A stretch of 62,518 nucleotides of DNA, the filler included, from Globobulimina sp. (lineage: Eukaryota): assembly GCA_003354225.1 (NCBI GenBank). It is 22 parts of 22 records of this genome, joined end to end, with 100 filler letters (N's around TTAATTAATTAA, not from the genome) between each part and the next. Parts side by side here need not be neighbours in the genome. Positions count along the whole stretch, not along the records: positions 31,317 to 34,062 come from PIVH01005094.1; 21 more parts are not named here. One strand, given 5' to 3'. The notes beneath the pieces were generated by a model that searched no databases, was not told the DNA's origin, and saw only the letters and a program-made list of their open reading frames with translations. Below are positions 12,699-50,271 of the stretch, in pieces. Numbering within the stretch: the first letter of the stretch is position 1; every line of letters begins with the position of its first letter. The position numbers were made by a program, and so were the translations under genes.

Positions 12699-13984
12699 AT
12701 GGCTGCATTACTTTCTCGCTATTGTCGTACGGCTAAACGGCTCGTACCTCACAAACATTATTTAAACACATTCGGCGTCCAATAACGCATGACGCCATCT
12801 GTGACATCTCAGACACCGACATCGCATCTCGTGAGTGGTACATCATTGACAGCACAATCCGCGAAGGCTTACAATTTTGCAACGCATTTTTCGACAGCAC
12901 AGAAAAAAGGGAGATCGCGTCTCGAATCAGCGACTTTGGCATCGAGTACATCGAGTTGTTGAATCCGTGCGTATCGCAGCAGTCCTTTGACGACATCCGA
13001 GCCATCGTCGACATGAAACTGAACAGCAAGATATTGACGCACGTCCGCTGTAACCTGGACGACGTGGCGCGCGCCCTCGAGACCGGCGTGGATGGCATCG
13101 ACATTGTGATCGGCACCTCCTCCTATTTGCGGCAGTTCAGCCACGGCAAATCCATCGCGGAGATCAAGAAGATGGCCAAAGAGGTGATCCAATTCATACA
13201 GAGCCGCGACGAGAACATGGAGATTCGTTTCAGCACAGAAGACTCATTCCGCTCTTCGGCCGAGGACTTGATGGATATTTATTCCTTTGTGTCGGAGTTA
13301 GATATCAGTCGCGTCGGCATCGCCGATACAGTGGGGATCGCCACGCCGGACAACGTGTTCTCGCTGACCAGCGCGGTGCGGGCCGCCATCAACAAATCGA
13401 AGTGCGAGGTCGAGATCCATTTGCATAACGACACCGGCTGCGCCATAGGCAACGCATACATGGCCATCAAAGCGGGCGCAAAGTATGTGGACTGTTGCGT
13501 GCTGGGCATCGGCGAAAGAAATGGCATTGTTCCGCTGGGCGGCTTCTTGTCGCGAATGTATGCCATCAATAAGCAATATGTGAGCGGCAAATATAAGTTG
13601 AAGGAGCTCAAGAATTTGGAGAATTATATCTGTAATCATTGCGACATTCAGATCCCGTTTAATAATTATATCACCGGCTATGCTGCCTTCACGCACAAAG
13701 CGGGCATCCACGCCAAGGCGGTGCTGAACAATCCGGAGTGTTACGAGTGTCTGGACCCCACCGACTTTGGCCTCAAGAGATACATCCACATTGCTCACGA
13801 GCTGACGGGTTGGAACGCCATAAAAGACCGCTGCGATCAGCTCAACTTGGAATTGCAGGACGCGGACATCAAGGAATTGACAGAGTACATCAAACAGTTT
13901 GCGTCGCTCAAAAAATGCAACTTGTCGGATGTCGACAATATTTTAATTAATCACAAGCAATATTTGCAAGCGAAAATCAAATGA
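12699..13984 (+). CDS. LYS20: Homocitrate synthase, fungal Lys20/Lys4 type; frameshift in the N-terminal leader
   Basis: IIDSTIREGLQFCNAFF (upstream of the tracked ORF start), KILTHVRC, EDSFRS, RVGIADTVG, HLHNDTG, LGIGERNG, AFTHKAGIHAKAVL, LTGWNAIK. The ATG at 12699 (MAALLSRYCRTAK) is out of frame with the catalytic ORF; the shift lies between about 12735 and 12783. Confidence 0.92.
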
Positions 13985-23034: not shown

Positions 23035-25524
23035 ATGGCAGCAGAAGCAAAAAAAAATAAACTGAAATGGAGTATTGATGTTTATAATCGATTGTTATGG
23101 GATGACACATTGGTTTTAGATAAATCCCTGATAGAAATAATCCATCATGTATGCAAATGCACCAATACCCTTCAATTAATTTACAAAACTGATTTATTCC
23201 AAATTTATGCAGGACAGATATGAAAAACTAAAATCTATAAAATTTACAAAGTGGATATCTATCGATGAAGGAGGGGATATCCCATTTCATAGAATTGCAC
23301 AGTTCAAATATAACAATCTTATTTTATGGGATAGAAAGCAAAGAATTGATAATCTCAACGCAAATTCAGGACGAACTACTTTGGATTTTCGTTTTATTCA
23401 ACAATCAATTTATCACAACACGGATAGCAACAAACAAACACAAAATAATATTATTAGTAATGATATAAACCGGTATCAAGATCCTATGCACATAGATACT
23501 TCAGAATATGTCGCCGATTCTCAGTTTCTAAGTTTATTGGAAATGGAACCAAAAAACGTGTCATCACTGTACAAGACATTAAACACAATGATAGATAATG
23601 CCTTTCTCAGTAAAAGACCAAATAACATTGAAAGATTAGCAAGAAATTTGAGCATTAAATATTTATCATATATTGATTCAATGAAGCCACACAAATATTA
23701 TTTATTTGGTTCAGCAAAAATAGGATTAGATTCACATAAATCCGACTTAGATATAAAAATTGAGCCATCCAAACACCACAAAATATCAACACGCGATGAC
23801 TGCCTTCAGTTATTAAACCAAATAAAATCTGAATTTTTGCAGCAACAATCACTACAATACAGTTTGCAGCAAAATATCAGCAATGCTCTGGACACAACTT
23901 TTATTAATATTACATTGGATGACTTTCAAAATGATGAAATTGCAGAGTTGCAAAGCAAAATCACTGCGGAAAATAACACGATCCATAGAATTATTGTTGA
24001 AAGCTCACGTATTTCGATCGGAGATGGTGTGATACCACGTTGTATGGTTGAATATATTGTGAAAGTCATAGCGTCTAAATCCATTCTCATAAAAAAGTTT
24101 AAAATATTGATGGATATTACGGTCAGTATTGATATAAGCGGCAATGAAGAAGTTAGAGATAAACATTTAGGAAATTGGGTGGATAAATTTTGTGTTTCCA
24201 ATGAAGATAAAAGGATTCATAAATTTTTATTTGCCGTGAAATTATGGGCACAACATTTTAAAGTCAATGTAAGCACTTCATCAACAATAAATGGCTATGG
24301 CTGGATCCATATTGCTTTGTTTTTATTGACTTCCAATTATAAACAAAAACAAATATATGAGAACGAGCATGTTAATGAAAGAAAAGATTATGAATCAATG
24401 TATTCAGATATTTGTATACCGCACGAGATAAGCTGTGGTAAATTATTTATTTCATTTATCTCAATGCTTCATTTATGGATATGTTTTGATGAAAAAACCG
24501 AAGAGAATCCAGCAAAGATTGTGCGCGATGGAATGAATGTGATCACAGGAGAATGGATTAACAATTTTAAACACTATGCTTTATTTGTATTGGATCCATT
24601 TTATCAAAGTGAGAATTTAGCAAACAACTTAACAAAATGTGTGCGAAATAGAAGAGGAATACCATTGCTAATTAAAGCTATTAAATCTAGCATCCAACAG
24701 CTACAGTTTGCTGCGCATGAATCTGTAAAATGTAATTACCATTCCATTGGGAAACATATTCAATTCTTTGATGATGCTGAAAAACGAACAATTATCGTTG
24801 ATGACAGTGATGAAACAAAAGAAGAAGAAGAGGAAGAGGAAGATATTGAGGATGGTTTTGTGAAATATTATTCATGGAAACAACTTTGTAATTTTCAATT
24901 AAATTTACCACAAAGAAAATGGATGCAACACAACAACTGTAATAAGAGGAAAACAAATGATTCAGATTCAGTTATTACAATTTGTGAATTTAACTGTTTA
25001 GCACAGGATCTTACCTCTGGAGAAAAGGCGCATTATCAATTTAAAACGGATGAAAAATATTTGCGATGGAACTACAGATCAAAGCGAATATTGTATGAAA
25101 TATTGCAGTATAAATGTGATATTATATGTCTTTGTGAAGTGGACGCGAAACACTTTGAGAATTTTTATTATCCGAACCTAACAAAATCGGTATTTAAATA
25201 TGACGGATTGTTTTTGAATAAGAATAAGCCGGATACTTATAAAGGAAATAAGAGATCGCGAGGTAGAGTGCCAAAAGACGGCGTGGCGATATTTTGGAAC
25301 AGTTTAAAGTTTGCATGCTATGACAAATATGAATGTGTTTTGGGGAAAGAAAATAAAAGTTACCATATTGCATTGGGCGTGAAATTAAAATATAAAATTG
25401 GCGATAAAGTATCTGCCGCGTTTGATGTTTGGTGCACACATTTAAAAGCGGGGAGAAATAATAAAGCAGAAAATTGGAGATTGGCACAGGTGAATTCTTT
25501 ATTATATTCTATGCGAAAGTATTC
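23035..25524 (+). CDS. MJ1316 domain + Cid1/PAP-type nucleotidyltransferase + nocturnin/CCR4-like EEP phosphatase fusion, 3'-partial
   Basis: Exon 23035-23148, intron 23149-23212, then exon 2. MJ1316: DVYNRLLWD...DRY...DIPFHRI...LWDRKQRID. NTase: LFGSAKIGLDSHKSDLDI, VKLWAQ, INGYGW, VLDPFYQSENLA. EEP: FNCLAQDL, LRWNYR, DIICLCEVD, DGVAIFW, THLKAG...RLAQ. Confidence 0.85.
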
Positions 25525-25864
25525 NNNNNNNNNNNNNNNNNNNNNNNNNNNNNNNNNNNNNNNNNNNNTTAATTAATTAANNNNNNNNNNNNNNNNNNNN
25601 NNNNNNNNNNNNNNNNNNNNNNNNTTGATTTCCCGCCGGGCTACATCGATTTTGTCGGCGATCTTCTGAAGCCTCGCCTGGTAAGGCGACCGTACGGAAG
25701 AAGGAAAATAGGTCGTATTGTTGACCAGTTCCATTGTCTGCTCGTAAAGCTTCAACTGCTGCTGTGCTTCAGCCGTTTTCTGTTCGGCAGCCAGGCGTCG
25801 CGTTTGGGAAGCAAAACCATCGGCAATCTCGGGAAACAATCCACCCAGATCGATCCCACTCTAA

Positions 25865-27165
<1,301 letters not shown>

Positions 27166-31215: not shown

Positions 31216-31549
31216 TNNNNNNNNNNNNNNNNNNNNNNNNNNNNNNNNNNNNNNNNNNNNTTAATTAATTAANNNNNNNNNNNNNNNNNNNNNNNNNNNN
31301 NNNNNNNNNNNNNNNNATAAAAATAAAAAACTGAAAGTAAGTACTAACTCAAAAACTTCAAAATTGAATGGCTGTTATCTTTGCCAAAAAATAAGCAGGC
31401 AAATTCCTAATGCTAATTCCATCCATGTATGTTAGTGAAGTACTTTATGTAAAAATATAAAGAAGTTTAAAGGAACTTTTTTTCTTTTTTTTTCTTTTCC
31501 AAATAAATCCAACTAGTTCCATATTAAGTAAACAAAACCCATGGGAAGC

Positions 31550-32436
31550 TCAAAAAATTCGCTTTTCCCAAGGGGATAAATAATTTATATCCATTGGTGA
31601 TTGTACGTGAAACACTGATTTGATATTCAACAATTTTATTTGTTGTAATTCAAATAAACGAGTACCAGAATGAATAAATATTTTAATTCTCCGATTCATT
31701 CCATCTGCTTTTTGACTTTCATTAACAACATATTTGGCATTTTTTAAAAATAATCCATGCAGTTTATATGGTAAACATTTCAAAGCATAAACATATTTTT
31801 TGTGCAAATGTGAAGATGGATCAATTTGAGGGTTAAATACTATCGAAATAATATTACAGTCGCTGCGATCTATAATATATTTTGTTAGCATCAACGCGCC
31901 AGTCCCACCCATACAATTTCCAATAAAAATTATGTTTCTATAACACCGATCGCCAATAATTCGTAGCAAATTGCATGCAATTTCACGCCATCCGTTAAAT
32001 TCTCCATTACTGTCATAAGTGTACCATGACATTCCAGTGCAATCAATGAGGAATAACATATCAAACGCGTCAGTTTTATCATTTAATTTGAGTGATTTTA
32101 AGGCAGCTCAAATCTGGAAAATCCACCAACTCGGATAGCAGCACCAGAAAAACATACAATTAAAGAAGGTTGCCGAGGAGTATAGGTTTTGATTATATTC
32201 AGAGTTTGTTGCAAATTATAACCAGTGCTGGACTCATATGGATACCATACATATCTGTTTTCCTCTAATTTTATTAACGGTTCTCTCACTATGAAGGCTA
32301 GTTTGGCTACAATACCAATGGGAAACAGTGAATTTGTTTCATTCATTGTTGAAGAGATACATTTTATGTAGATTTTCAACAATGGAAATATCATTAATAA
32401 AAATGCAAATGCTGCAATTACAATCCAATGTATCAT
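31550..32436 (-). CDS. Membrane-anchored alpha/beta-hydrolase-like protein with an internal frameshift
   Basis: N-terminal TM segment and LIVCFSG...RFE, a frame break near 32100, then LKSLK...DMLFLID...WY...IIFIGNCMGGTGAL (nucleophile elbow carrying Cys). Confidence 0.6.
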
Positions 32437-32530
32437 CGCCAGTGTGATCTGTTGTCATTTAATAGATTGATTCCATATTGATGCGATGCTGAGTATTGAG
32501 TGACTAAACAGTTTTTTATGTAGCTGAATA

Positions 32531-34062
32531 ATGAGCATTACATTATCAGCACGTTGCAAGCAAATCTATGTCATAGGAAAACAGAATAATGACGCAAATG
32601 ATGAAAGTCATGAAACACACTTTTCGAAATACAACTATTATGCACAACATCCAGCTTACAAATTAATTTCAGAAATAGGATGGGATAAATTCTATTACAA
32701 TCTAATTGAATCAGTCAACTCACACAAAAAAATACGAATTATCCAAGATAAAGAATGTGAAAATCAATATGAATTATTTAATTATGTCGGATCTTTTAAA
32801 GATTGGAATGAATATAATATACTTTGCAGAGGAATGATTTTAGATTTATCAACCAAACAAATTGTCGCTGTTTCTTTTCCCAAATTTTTTAATTTTATAG
32901 AACATGATGAAAATATTCAACAATATATTTGTGACAAATTCAACTCAAATATTGATCATAAAGAAAAAGAAGAAGAGCACAAAGAGCAGAAAATGAGCGG
33001 TGATAACAATTACATTTTTGAGAAAATGGATGGTTCATTGGGTATTTGTTTCTATTGTCAATATGCCAAAAGATGGAGAGTTATAACCCGAGGCTCATTT
33101 ATTTCCTCTCAATCAAAATGGGCAAATAATTATATTTTAGATAAAAAACTGCAATTCTTTGAGAAGGGACATACGTATTTATTTGAAATCATCTATAAAG
33201 AAAATAAAATCGGCGTTGATTATGGAAAGTATGAAGGCTTAGTATTATTAGCTGCGTATAATGACAATGGGTATGAATATCAGTATAAATATTTACAATC
33301 CATTGCGGAGAAAATGGACTTTAAAATTGCGGAATGTTTCAACAATGATTATAAAAACATTGAGGACTTATTGGCAGCGCAGAAATTGATCGATAACAAT
33401 CGAGAAGGATTCGTATTATGTTTGTCGAATGGATTTAGAATTAAATTCAAAGGCGAAGAATATTTAAATATGATTAAACATAAAAAATATTTTGGTAGCA
33501 GTGCCATTGGAAAACATATTAAAACTCAGATTATTGAAAATGGAATGTTTATTAAAGAGGATATTTTAAAAAAATATGACGAAGAGTTTCATGTTGAGAT
33601 AGAAAACGTTTTTAATAAAATTTATGAACATTTTATAAAGTCGACACGAGAATGTGTTGAAGATTTGTTACTAACAAATAATTTGTCTAAGAATCAATTG
33701 TTAAAATATGAGAAGGAATTAAATAATTCGGGAAAATTTATTGTAAGAGCCAGAAAAATATGTGATGCGAATTTATGGAAATTATTTTTGGTTAAAAAAT
33801 CCAATAAGAAAGCATTGGGAAAAGCTGTTAATAAAATTAGTAATGAGTTGGCAGCCAAGAAAGCAAAATTCCGAATTGATATTGGTTGCAAATGTGACGG
33901 CCCCACTGGGCGTAAAACACTACTCAATATGCCTGCATTCATTGTATCACTGATTCATCAATTCACCGCAACTAAACAAAATAAAATAAAATTTGGTTTA
34001 TCAGCAAATTGTGCGTTTGTATTACGCGTTTTTAAGTATCAAATAAATTTAGAAGCGAAACA
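32531..34062 (+). CDS. T4 Rnl1-family ATP-dependent RNA ligase, 3'-partial
   Basis: LFNY, CRGMILD, FPKFFN, motif I EKMDGSLG, TRGSFIS, motif III YLFEII, LVLLAAY, motif IV REGFVL, motif V RIKFKGEEY. Confidence 0.9.
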
Positions 34063-48507: not shown

Positions 48508-50271
48508 TTATAATAATTGAATTTCATAAGCCACCAAACAACATATTGGAAGAAATAGTGTCCATTCCGCTATATTTATATACAAATTGTTTACATCCAA
48601 CACCACCGCGGCACCAACAATTAGCAATGCACTCGAAATTACGTTGGACAAATTTGAAAATGCAGTGGACTCTAAATACAAAAACAATGGCGACATTATG
48701 CTCGAAAATATGAAACTAAATGTTACCATCAACAGTCCGCTCAATTTAGCTGTTGTATAATTATCCAAATCTGAATAATAATTAGAATATCCGATATAAA
48801 ATAGCAGCGACGACAACGACACCAGAAAATGAAAGGCCTCCATTCGGATTCGAGTGTGGCCAAACAGCAATTTTGTAACACCGCCAATATCCACACTCAA
48901 TATACACAACGGCAACATTATGGAAATCAGCTCCGTGGCAACATATTGCATATGACAGTAATGGCTCTTCCCATCGCCCTCCGATATCGATGCCGCATCC
49001 AAATGTTTGCAATAATCGGATGTCCCAAACACCACACAAAGACATTGCAAGACGCCACACAAAACATACAATGCCGCACCGCCACACCGATACACTTTGT
49101 CTCCCTTTGCATTGCCGCGCTTCTTTGGGATAACAAACCATTCCATAAATATCACAGCCGCCGACGTTGCGATCAGAACTCCCAAACTCACACAGTACCA
49201 TCCATACGTTCCTTTCTTTAAATGCAGCGCAAAATCCCTCGGCCGCTCTGCCTGCAATGCCCGGAACGATTTGCTCTCGAAATCCACCCAGAAATTGAAA
49301 AAATTAATAAAATGCCCCACGCCATACAGCAACAACAAAGTGTTGAACAGCAATAAGCGCTGCTTCTTGTCGTCCAACTTAAATGAGAACTTTTTGAACA
49401 CCAAATAACTAAACGGGTCCTCGTGGTCCTGCTCCTCACCGTCACTGTCCTCAAAATCGTGCATATCCTCGTTGCCGCCATATATAATATGATCGCCCGC
49501 AGCGCCGCAGTTGATATTGCCTTTGGCGCCGACCTGCTTCCTCTCGGTGGCCGCGGTGTAGACTTTCTTTGGTCGCTTGTAAACAGACGGCGTGGCGATG
49601 TCTGCTCCGTACTCAGTGGGCGGCGCAGTGATAAATCTCTCGCGCATAGACGACTGGGCGCCGATCACATTGATATTGAACGAGTCCAACCGCTGCAAGT
49701 CGTAACTCATACAGATGGACAGCACCACAATGACGAACCAGGTCTGGTGCGCCGAATAAGCGCCATCGAAAGCAATCACATGCGGACCATAGGCAGCCAT
49801 GGGCGAACAGAGCAGCAGCACAGAAACGGCAATCTCGACGTATTTCTTCAGCACACCTTCGTGGTAAAAGCCCTCGCAAATATAAATAATGGCAGTGGCC
49901 GCACAGATTAACCAAAACGAGGTCTGTGCAAAAGCGATGTAAGAGGACAGATAAAAGGTGTTTTGGCCGAAATTGTAGGTCTGGAACTCCATAATGTAGA
50001 GGAAGGAGGAGAGGAAGATGAAGAGCGTGCAGCATAGGACGCGTTTATTGGGGTTTCGCAGGAAATTATCCACGAGGTCCACACACAAAATGGCAGGCAA
50101 TACGATGGAGAACAGCGTCGATGATAAGATGGTCAGGTTACAGCCGCTCGGCTTATCCCTGCCGGAACACGCATCGCTGCACATTTCCCACGTGATGGCC
50201 AAATGGAATACGAACGACAGGAAATAGATGAGGCCGATCGAGAGGTTCACGCCATCCACAAATGAGGCCAT
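48508..50271 (-). CDS. Polytopic membrane protein (587 aa; two TM bundles around a central hydrophilic loop)
   Basis: Complete ORF with about 12 hydrophobic segments; family not recognised. Confidence 0.7.
   Translation of the reverse strand: MASFVDGVNLSIGLIYFLSFVFHLAITWEMCSDACSGRDKPSGCNLTILSSTLFSIVLPAILCVDLVDNFLRNPNKRVLCCTLFIFLSSFLYIMEFQTYNFGQNTFYLSSYIAFAQTSFWLICAATAIIYICEGFYHEGVLKKYVEIAVSVLLLCSPMAAYGPHVIAFDGAYSAHQTWFVIVVLSICMSYDLQRLDSFNINVIGAQSSMRERFITAPPTEYGADIATPSVYKRPKKVYTAATERKQVGAKGNINCGAAGDHIIYGGNEDMHDFEDSDGEEQDHEDPFSYLVFKKFSFKLDDKKQRLLLFNTLLLLYGVGHFINFFNFWVDFESKSFRALQAERPRDFALHLKKGTYGWYCVSLGVLIATSAAVIFMEWFVIPKKRGNAKGDKVYRCGGAALYVLCGVLQCLCVVFGTSDYCKHLDAASISEGDGKSHYCHMQYVATELISIMLPLCILSVDIGGVTKLLFGHTRIRMEAFHFLVSLSSLLFYIGYSNYYSDLDNYTTAKLSGLLMVTFSFIFSSIMSPLFLYLESTAFSNLSNVISSALLIVGAAVVLDVNNLYINIAEWTLFLPICCLVAYEIQLL

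Follow-up and report, generated by a model that had tools for sequence, protein, structure and literature searches.

Does a foraminifer possess an RNA ligase of the kind known from bacteriophage T4, and, if so, does the gene belong to the protist itself or to bacterial or viral DNA assembled along with it? The question is raised by a stretch of DNA of 62,518 nucleotides (nt) from Globobulimina sp. (GenBank assembly GCA_003354225.1), referred to here as the window, in which one contig (PIVH01005094.1) carries an open reading frame (ORF) with the motifs of a T4 Rnl1-like ligase. The window is made up of about 22 contigs of roughly 2746 bp each, with N44-TTAATTAATTAA-N44 spacers between them, so that it does not represent one stretch of the genome. 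The ligase ORF starts at 32531 on the plus strand and is still open where the contig ends, at 34062, which gives a product of 510 amino acids (aa). On the evidence set out below it is probable that the ORF is an anciently acquired gene in the nuclear genome of a foraminifer-like protist and that it encodes a stand-alone, ATP-dependent ligase of the Rnl1 type, with a leader of about 36 aa, an adenylyltransferase domain and, at the C-terminus, a helical domain of about 130 aa, which would function in sealing RNA breaks.

A direct phmmer search of the sequences in the PDB with the ligase gave no match at E ≤ 1, and a scan of NCBIfam returned no family. A profile derived from 13 family members, compared with the same PDB sequences, retrieved three T4 Rnl1 entries with E-values of 2e-21 to 4e-20, the next match being the tRNA ligase domain of Candida glabrata at E = 0.04. 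The Pfam family PF09511 (RNA_lig_T4_1) is recognized over residues 99–311 with 53.1 bits, compared with a cut-off of 28.3, and is matched by 66 of 70 relatives, while PHROG 562, described as "RNA ligase and tail fiber protein attachment catalyst", aligns with residues 54–401 (E = 4e-37). An AlphaFold2 model was built from the alignment of 70 sequences, with a mean predicted local distance difference test score (pLDDT) of 83 and a predicted template modelling score of 0.79; averaged over 10-residue blocks, the pLDDT exceeds 85 for most of residues 31–410, drops to 68–70 at 141–160 and to 57–66 at 411–440, and lies below 50 at 444–510. When this model was submitted to Foldseek, T4 Rnl1 was the top-ranked structure (E = 1e-13). 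The assignment to the ATP-dependent RNA ligases of the Rnl1 type, with the predicted catalytic motifs intact, is supported. The original prediction, which spoke of a T4 Rnl1 RNA ligase, holds for the enzyme class and not for T4 Rnl1 proper, given an identity of only about 20% and the lack of a direct phmmer match; the sequence belongs instead to a large, uncharacterized subfamily of bacterial and phage proteins of roughly 390 aa.

The four motifs on which that prediction was founded are found where they were placed, KMDGS at residues 165–169, FEII at 218–221, EGFV at 292–295 and KFK at 305–307. Across the 70 sequences, K165, D167 and G168 of motif I are invariant, and E219 of FEII, E292–G293 of EGFV and both K305 and K307 of KFK are invariant or nearly invariant in the family. 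In the profile alignment, residues R100, K118, F120, K165, G168 and R187 are paired with R54, K75, F77, K99, G102 and K119 of T4 Rnl1, and E219, E292, G293, K305 and K307 with E159, E227, G228, K240 and K242. The ligase residues paired in this way with the T4 active site are invariant or nearly so in the 70 relatives, including the Arg/Lys/Phe set of the N sub-domain (R100, K118, F120), which is invariant; the structural alignment begins at chain residue 0. Apart from Arg54 and Lys75, the T4 Rnl1 active-site residues paired here are known to be essential. Arg54 and Lys75 are essential as well and contact the γ-phosphate of ATP, as described in passages of PMC6379707. Since the active-site residues are conserved, the protein very probably follows standard ligase chemistry through a predicted K165–AMP intermediate: K165 would attack ATP to give ligase-AMP, the AMP would be transferred to an RNA 5'-phosphate, and the 3'-OH of an RNA would then attack and seal the break. 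The gene had also been described as intronless, and this agrees with its collinearity, over residues 1–440, with transcript-derived homologues, because of which no intron needs to be invoked.

Outside the catalytic core, the ligase departs from its bacterial relatives in several ways. Bacterial members begin near the HPA motif and lack the leader of about 36 residues, which the model shows as partly folded (mean pLDDT of 90, 80 and 69 for the three blocks of residues 1–30). A Lys/Glu-rich insert ahead of motif I is restricted to the closest foraminiferal clade, and contigs from other sequencing runs carry an in-frame insertion of 6 nt after 32950, within this insert. Residues 312–440 are conserved throughout the subfamily, the bacterial proteins of about 390 aa included, and hence constitute the family's own domain and not an add-on. 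The C-terminal domain is a feature that separates ligase clades, Rnl2 being marked by its own C-domain and Rnl5 (NgrRnl/DraRnl) by an N-terminal OB-like module. In the present subfamily none of the 70 members matches the C-terminal domain of T4 Rnl1 (Pfam PF20819, T4_Rnl1_C) at E ≤ 0.01, and a model of the helical C-domain by itself neither retrieved T4 Rnl1 nor found any other structural match. Passages of PMC6379707 indicate that the C-domain sets specificity in T4 Rnl1, and, as this domain is not recognizably of the T4 type here, the substrate may be a different one. The unrecognized extension of about 200 aa that had been noted earlier is, accordingly, in large part this conserved domain (through residue 401 it is also covered by PHROG 562), only the last 71 codons being unique.

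The closest relatives of the ligase come from other foraminifera. A database search, in which 8000 candidates were scored and relatives counted at E ≤ 0.001, yielded 4529 relatives. The best three have 50–52% identity over 88–89% of the sequence and the next three 39%; the remainder do not exceed about 40% and align over shorter spans. Nearest are proteins of Bolivina argentea (52%), Rosalina sp. (an MMETSP entry in the cluster of P0003; 51%) and Nonionella stella (39%), along with a second, different protein of Bolivina argentea, a paralogue, at 39%. For a maximum-likelihood tree, computed with a quick IQ-TREE run, the window ligase was trimmed to 455 residues and 117 of 221 rows were retained after rows at least 60% identical to a kept row had been dropped. 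The ligase groups with three relatives with a support of 96 in the Shimodaira–Hasegawa-like approximate likelihood-ratio test (SH-aLRT), and seven foraminifer-type rows, together with one metagenomic protein rich in poly-Asn tracts, form a clade with an SH-aLRT of 99 that spans at least three named genera, with paralogues. When metagenomes were scanned with a profile built from the foraminiferal clade, none of the relatives (280 returned, 80 kept) exceeded 42% identity, and neither further members of the clade nor longer contigs for it came to light. Judged by titles and abstracts, the papers found on foraminifera and RNA ligase do not deal with such a gene, and a foraminiferal clade is not described among the matches listed for RNA ligase, Rnl1 in eukaryotes and horizontal transfer.

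The surroundings of the gene likewise have the character of host DNA. Genes of clearly eukaryotic type are present on other contigs (cyclin, formin FH2, annexin, MATH, ABCG transporter, CFIm25, homocitrate synthase and, further, EMC4, SPRY, C2H2 zinc fingers and OSTalpha), and the product of the ABCG gene has its closest relative in Nonionella, with 60% identity. Comparison of coverage and tetranucleotide composition with the host was approximated through codon usage inside the window. The ligase gene has a GC content of 0.28, and of 0.255 at third codon positions (GC3), and its codon usage correlates with that of the pooled other window ORFs at r = 0.92, a value comparable to those of the annexin (0.93), MATH (0.92), formin (0.89) and ABCG (0.89) genes, which bears out the earlier description of eukaryote-like DNA with host-like AT content. 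The left 275 nt of the ligase contig are a dispersed repeat with a summed word depth of 800–1600 in run X1, compared with about 6 elsewhere on the contig; the depth amounts to 100–300 times that of the rest of the contig, and many differing junctions occur at 31576–31584 in all four runs. The repeat overlaps the 3' end of the neighbouring ORF and has no second copy among the other contigs of the window. These runs (X1, X2, X3 and X4) are public, and their assembled contigs, of unspecified kind, were aligned to the ligase contig; three of the four derive from one sample, possibly the source of the assembly, X2 and X4 share a sample, and X3 comes from a second study. In X3 the neighbouring gene and the spacer are present, together with parts of the ligase, the sequences differing by about 1%. 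The version of the locus in the window and X1 differs from that in X2, X3 and X4 by single-nucleotide polymorphisms at about 1% of positions, which suggests two haplotypes or strains.

Beyond foraminifera the family is dominated by bacteria and phages, and a bacterial or phage/viral origin of the ligase gene is for this reason plausible, as far as sequence comparison can indicate. Among prokaryotes, sampled at one genome per species, 96 relatives were found, from cyanobacteria, Planctomycetota, Alphaproteobacteria, Bacillaceae, Melainabacteria and Patescibacteria among others; the IMG/VR viral contigs contain 320 relatives with up to 39% identity, and records of cultured phages, mostly of Streptomyces, Bacillus and Arthrobacter, 201 with up to 32%. 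A second eukaryotic clade consists of two diatom sequences (Cylindrotheca and an MMETSP entry labelled Nitzschia) and one further relative (SH-aLRT 100) and is placed by the free tree among bacterial and viral rows. Two independent acquisitions by eukaryotes, as the separation of the foraminiferal and diatom clades in the free tree would imply, were considered and dropped after an approximately unbiased (AU) test: a single clade of foraminiferal and diatom-type rows, a group named after the tree had been seen, was not rejected (p = 0.54), and the tree constrained in this way surpassed the quick free tree by 3.7 log-likelihood units. Most likely an ancestor of the sampled foraminifera took up the gene from a bacterium or a virus, or perhaps it came in earlier, in a common ancestor with diatoms, and it would since then have been inherited vertically and duplicated. 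The lateral acquisition proposed at the outset is in this sense plausible, and a recent date for it is contradicted by the degree of divergence from Bolivina and Rosalina (50–52%) and from Nonionella (39%), by the Bolivina paralogue and by the grouping of all of these in one clade. To judge from these relationships, the acquisition is an old one, which predates the split of the sampled foraminifera and was followed by duplication.

The ligase gene is arranged divergently with a second gene (Table 1), which belongs to a tiny family: only 22 representatives were found at E ≤ 0.001 among 1.84 billion sequences, the best being a 309-aa protein with 49% identity. These relatives are roughly 290–310 aa long and include the Reticulomyxa filosa protein ETO28593.1. 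The head-to-head arrangement with a gap of 94 nt is as originally described, and the characterization of the neighbour as hydrolase-like comes down to a sub-threshold match to one Pfam family (UPF0227, E = 0.09), besides a Gly-x-Cys-x-Gly stretch, in a gene that is split in this contig. Homologues continue uninterrupted across the break between its two ORFs. The contigs of X2, X3 and X4 have seven extra nucleotides after 32102 that X1, like the window, lacks; read by hand, this insertion unites both ORFs in one frame, with a linker that resembles that of the relatives. Either this haplotype carries a broken neighbour, or the gene was called wrongly in an assembly of low depth.

A similar problem affects the 3' end of the ligase ORF. 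The segment 33850–34062 aligns with no part of any homologue, and the depth is 0 over 33893–34062 in all four runs. One contig each of X2 and X4 departs from the window sequence exactly at 33849, and the 30 letters that follow there, read by hand in frame, encode a Trp-Arg-Ile-Phe motif, which close relatives likewise possess just ahead of their Lys-rich ends. The tail is open in the frame of the ligase, the other two frames having 8 and 4 stops, and may represent a divergent allele or, if the contig was misassembled, part of a different coding region. Full-length relatives measure 460–505 aa and end about 15 residues beyond residue 440. No sign of a fused kinase or phosphatase was seen in the ORF, which is cut by the contig end, or in the full-length relatives, and, these being only 460–505 aa long, nothing speaks for such a fusion.

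Table 1. Features of the contig that carries the ligase gene (positions along the window)
Feature	Position	Strand	Basis or remark
Ligase contig	31317-34062		PIVH01005094.1
High-copy dispersed repeat	31317-31592	.	Left contig end; word depth and junctions
Neighbour gene, uncharacterized protein with N-terminal hydrophobic helix	31550..32436	-	Split into ORFs 32098-32436 and 31550-32059
Divergent intergenic spacer, 94 nt, between start codons	32437..32530	.	ORF coordinates
Ligase coding sequence, supported part, residues 1-440	32531..33849	+	ORF/translation, collinear with foraminiferal homologues
N-terminal extension, about 36 residues, foraminiferal clade only	32531..32638	+	Alignment
Adenylyltransferase domain (Rnl1-like N sub-domain and nucleotidyltransferase core), residues 37-311	32639..33463	+	
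Lys/Glu-rich insert of low complexity immediately ahead of motif I, about residues 133-160	32927..33010	+	Alignment, pLDDT 68-70
Motif I KMDGS, K165 the predicted AMP-accepting lysine	33023..33037	+	Pairs with KEDGS of T4 Rnl1 (profile alignment)
Subfamily-specific all-helical C-terminal domain, residues 312-440	33464..33849	+	
Doubtful 3' tail, 71 codons, into contig end	33850..34062	+	No counterpart in homologues; pLDDT <50; divergence at 33849

The likely role of the enzyme would be the sealing of RNA breaks with 5'-phosphate and 3'-OH ends, that is, RNA or tRNA repair. The genomic context of bacterial subfamily members was surveyed by means of the two ORFs closest to the ligase gene in either direction, which could be collected for 33 of 38 loci (119 ORFs; the ligase ORF was not located in the other five). 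The neighbours are mostly unrelated among themselves. One locus (L053) has RlaP upstream of the ligase and a Pnkp-type kinase-phosphatase downstream, RlaP adjoins the ligase in another (L071), a kinase of the AAA_33/KTI12 type lies near it in a third (L055), and an EEP-family protein in a fourth (L076). RlaP, according to passages of 10.64898/2025.12.29.696909, is named after its association with RNA-repair ligases. An RNA-repair role is a reasonable inference for the family, and for the foraminiferal clade it is weakly supported by this comparison. The window also contains a possible RNA-end-processing protein, encoded at 23207–25524 on the plus strand (772 aa, running off the end of its own contig), with marginal matches to MJ1316 (22.9 bits, cut-off 26.3), EEP (24.7 bits, cut-off 24.5) and a polymerase-beta-type nucleotidyltransferase (about 21 bits). 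As had been pointed out before, this MJ1316-EEP ORF and the ligase lie on different contigs, and nothing connects the two.

Several other explanations of the locus deserve consideration. That the contig is bacterial or phage DNA co-assembled with that of the protist is suggested by the overwhelmingly bacterial and phage composition of the family, by the high fragmentation of the assembly, with contigs of about 2.7 kb, and by a few contigs of the window with very different codon usage. No bacterial or viral sequence, however, exceeds about 40% identity, compared with 50–52% for the foraminiferal transcriptome relatives, and since these relatives, the codon usage, the neighbour, the repeat at the contig end, the ABCG gene of the window and the recurrence of the locus in X3 are all host-like, such contamination is very unlikely, and the contig is most probably host nuclear DNA. 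The contaminating bacterium or virus against which the original prediction had been hedged is contradicted in particular by codon usage, by the foraminiferal relatives and by the Reticulomyxa-type neighbour. Somewhat harder to dismiss, and still quite improbable, is an insertion from a giant virus or other virus, an endogenous viral element, in which case the foraminiferal transcripts could themselves be of viral origin or stem from such insertions. Nucleocytoviricota make up most of one of the nearest language-model clusters, many of the viral-contig relatives are on contigs of 100–460 kb, and the short divergent spacer and the lack of an intron would fit a viral genome. The identity of the viral contigs, on the other hand, does not exceed 39%, and in the tree they all fall outside the foraminiferal clade, which covers at least three named genera and includes paralogues; the neighbour is a foraminifer-type gene and no viral hallmark, and the codon usage is that of the host.

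If the gene belongs to the protist, the copy in the window might nevertheless be a decaying or non-functional allele, an incipient pseudogene. The neighbour is frameshifted in this haplotype and the ligase loses the C-terminal motif of the family at 33849 and continues without a stop, whereas the other haplotype has an intact neighbour (X2, X3, X4) and a normal ligase end (X2, X4). Both anomalies could equally be errors of an assembly of low depth (about 6x), the 7-nt gap in the X1 contig being no independent confirmation because X1 is possibly source data, and a sequence with 440 open codons in which all invariant residues of the family are kept makes decay an improbable, though not a negligible, explanation. 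An altogether different proposal, that the protein is the tRNA-splicing ligase of the organism, with a function like that of Trl1, appears highly improbable. Its full-length relatives of 460–505 aa have neither kinase nor phosphodiesterase domains, profile comparison gives E = 0.04 for Trl1 compared with 2e-21 to 4e-20 for T4 Rnl1, and the family is patchy among eukaryotes. The segment that follows KFKG, moreover, holds no arginine pair and lacks the RxxR that, in passages of PMC6379707, is proposed to bind the 2'-phosphate in Trl1 and lies beside motif V.

There remain observations that weigh against an anciently acquired, functional RNA-repair ligase of the foraminiferal host. The foraminiferal clade sits in a polytomy, so that the tree points to no particular donor, and, because the AU test does not reject one clade with the diatoms, one transfer or more than one may have occurred. 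No RNA run containing the ligase gene is among the runs listed for the contig. Repair-type neighbours occur in only 3 of the 33 bacterial loci, none of them in the sub-clade nearest to the foraminifera, and tRNA genes lie nearby (within 6 kb) in only 3 of 38 loci, one of these having an array of 11. Lastly, with its broken neighbour and aberrant 3' end, the haplotype represented in the window may not carry the functional allele.

Some further features of the family and the window are recorded here for completeness. Directly after motif V, bacterial and viral members have a conserved Arg-x-His-Arg, which recalls the RxxR proposed to serve the 2'-phosphate in Trl1 (in passages of PMC6379707) and which the foraminiferal clade lacks (about residues 312–318 of the window ligase). 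In a Planctomycetota metagenome-assembled genome (L057, 4960–7656), an array of 11 tRNAs flanks the ligase gene on both sides and may be a prophage or a tRNA island; a paper on cyanobacterial tRNA arrays (PMC8421152) deals with RtcB and not with the Rnl1-type subfamily. One metagenomic member of the family (P0086, 543 aa) has an intein splicing domain (PF14890) inside the ligase. The ligase contig itself contains no tRNA genes and no Rfam matches. Elsewhere in the window, three ORFs (12956–13984, 25804–27165 and 48508–50271) have GC3 values of 0.73, 0.54 and 0.59 and a codon usage that correlates with the rest of the window at r = 0.34–0.48; they comprise homocitrate synthase, CFIm25 and one ORF without assignment, and their composition could reflect a bias linked to expression or the presence in the assembly of DNA from another organism.

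Among characterized systems, the ligase most resembles T4 Rnl1 (gp63; PDB 2C5U, 5TT6 and 9DO4), which is both its best profile match and its best structural match and with which it shares a two-part adenylyltransferase domain, the same residues in motifs I, III, IV and V, the Arg/Lys/Phe of the N sub-domain and the organization as a stand-alone enzyme with a helical C-terminal domain. The low identity, the C-domain unmatched by PF20819, the 36-aa leader, the Lys/Glu insert and its nature as a eukaryotic host gene set it apart. The ligase domain of Trl1 (Rnl6; PDB 6N0T, 6N67 and 8RBJ) differs by its C-domain, its RxxR and the kinase and cyclic phosphodiesterase that are missing from the full-length relatives of the foraminiferal protein. 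Distant bacterial members of the subfamily adjoin genes of the RlaP/Pnkp RNA-repair type (L053, L071, L055), but the foraminiferal gene has no such neighbour, and operon logic is absent from eukaryotic gene order. A precedent, to be drawn at the level of the Rnl1 family only, is the free-living protist Naegleria gruberi, for which Unciuleac & Shuman 2015 (PMC4408790) list seven paralogues of the Rnl1 family, so far uncharacterized, which likewise are stand-alone and present in several copies. A bolder reading is that the Rnl1-type core combined with an unmatched helical C-domain could have a substrate specificity different from that of T4 Rnl1, and that the foraminiferal and diatom copies might descend from a single gene transferred long ago into a shared ancestor of the stramenopile–alveolate–rhizarian (SAR) group and may serve a conserved RNA-joining task; we regard this combination as doubtful, though worth keeping in mind.

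The foraminiferal gene is a new member of a known enzyme class, stand-alone ligases of the Rnl1 family being already known in protists, and it leaves current views of RNA repair unchanged. With it, the Foraminifera join the few eukaryotes in which stand-alone Rnl1-type ligases are retained, Naegleria being the documented precedent, and the retention and duplication of the gene in foraminifera argue for a real role in the joining of RNA ends in the cell. More interesting is the family as a whole, a very large and biochemically unstudied subfamily of ligases with a C-terminal domain that has no structural match, which would make a reasonable target for enzymology or for the development of reagents.

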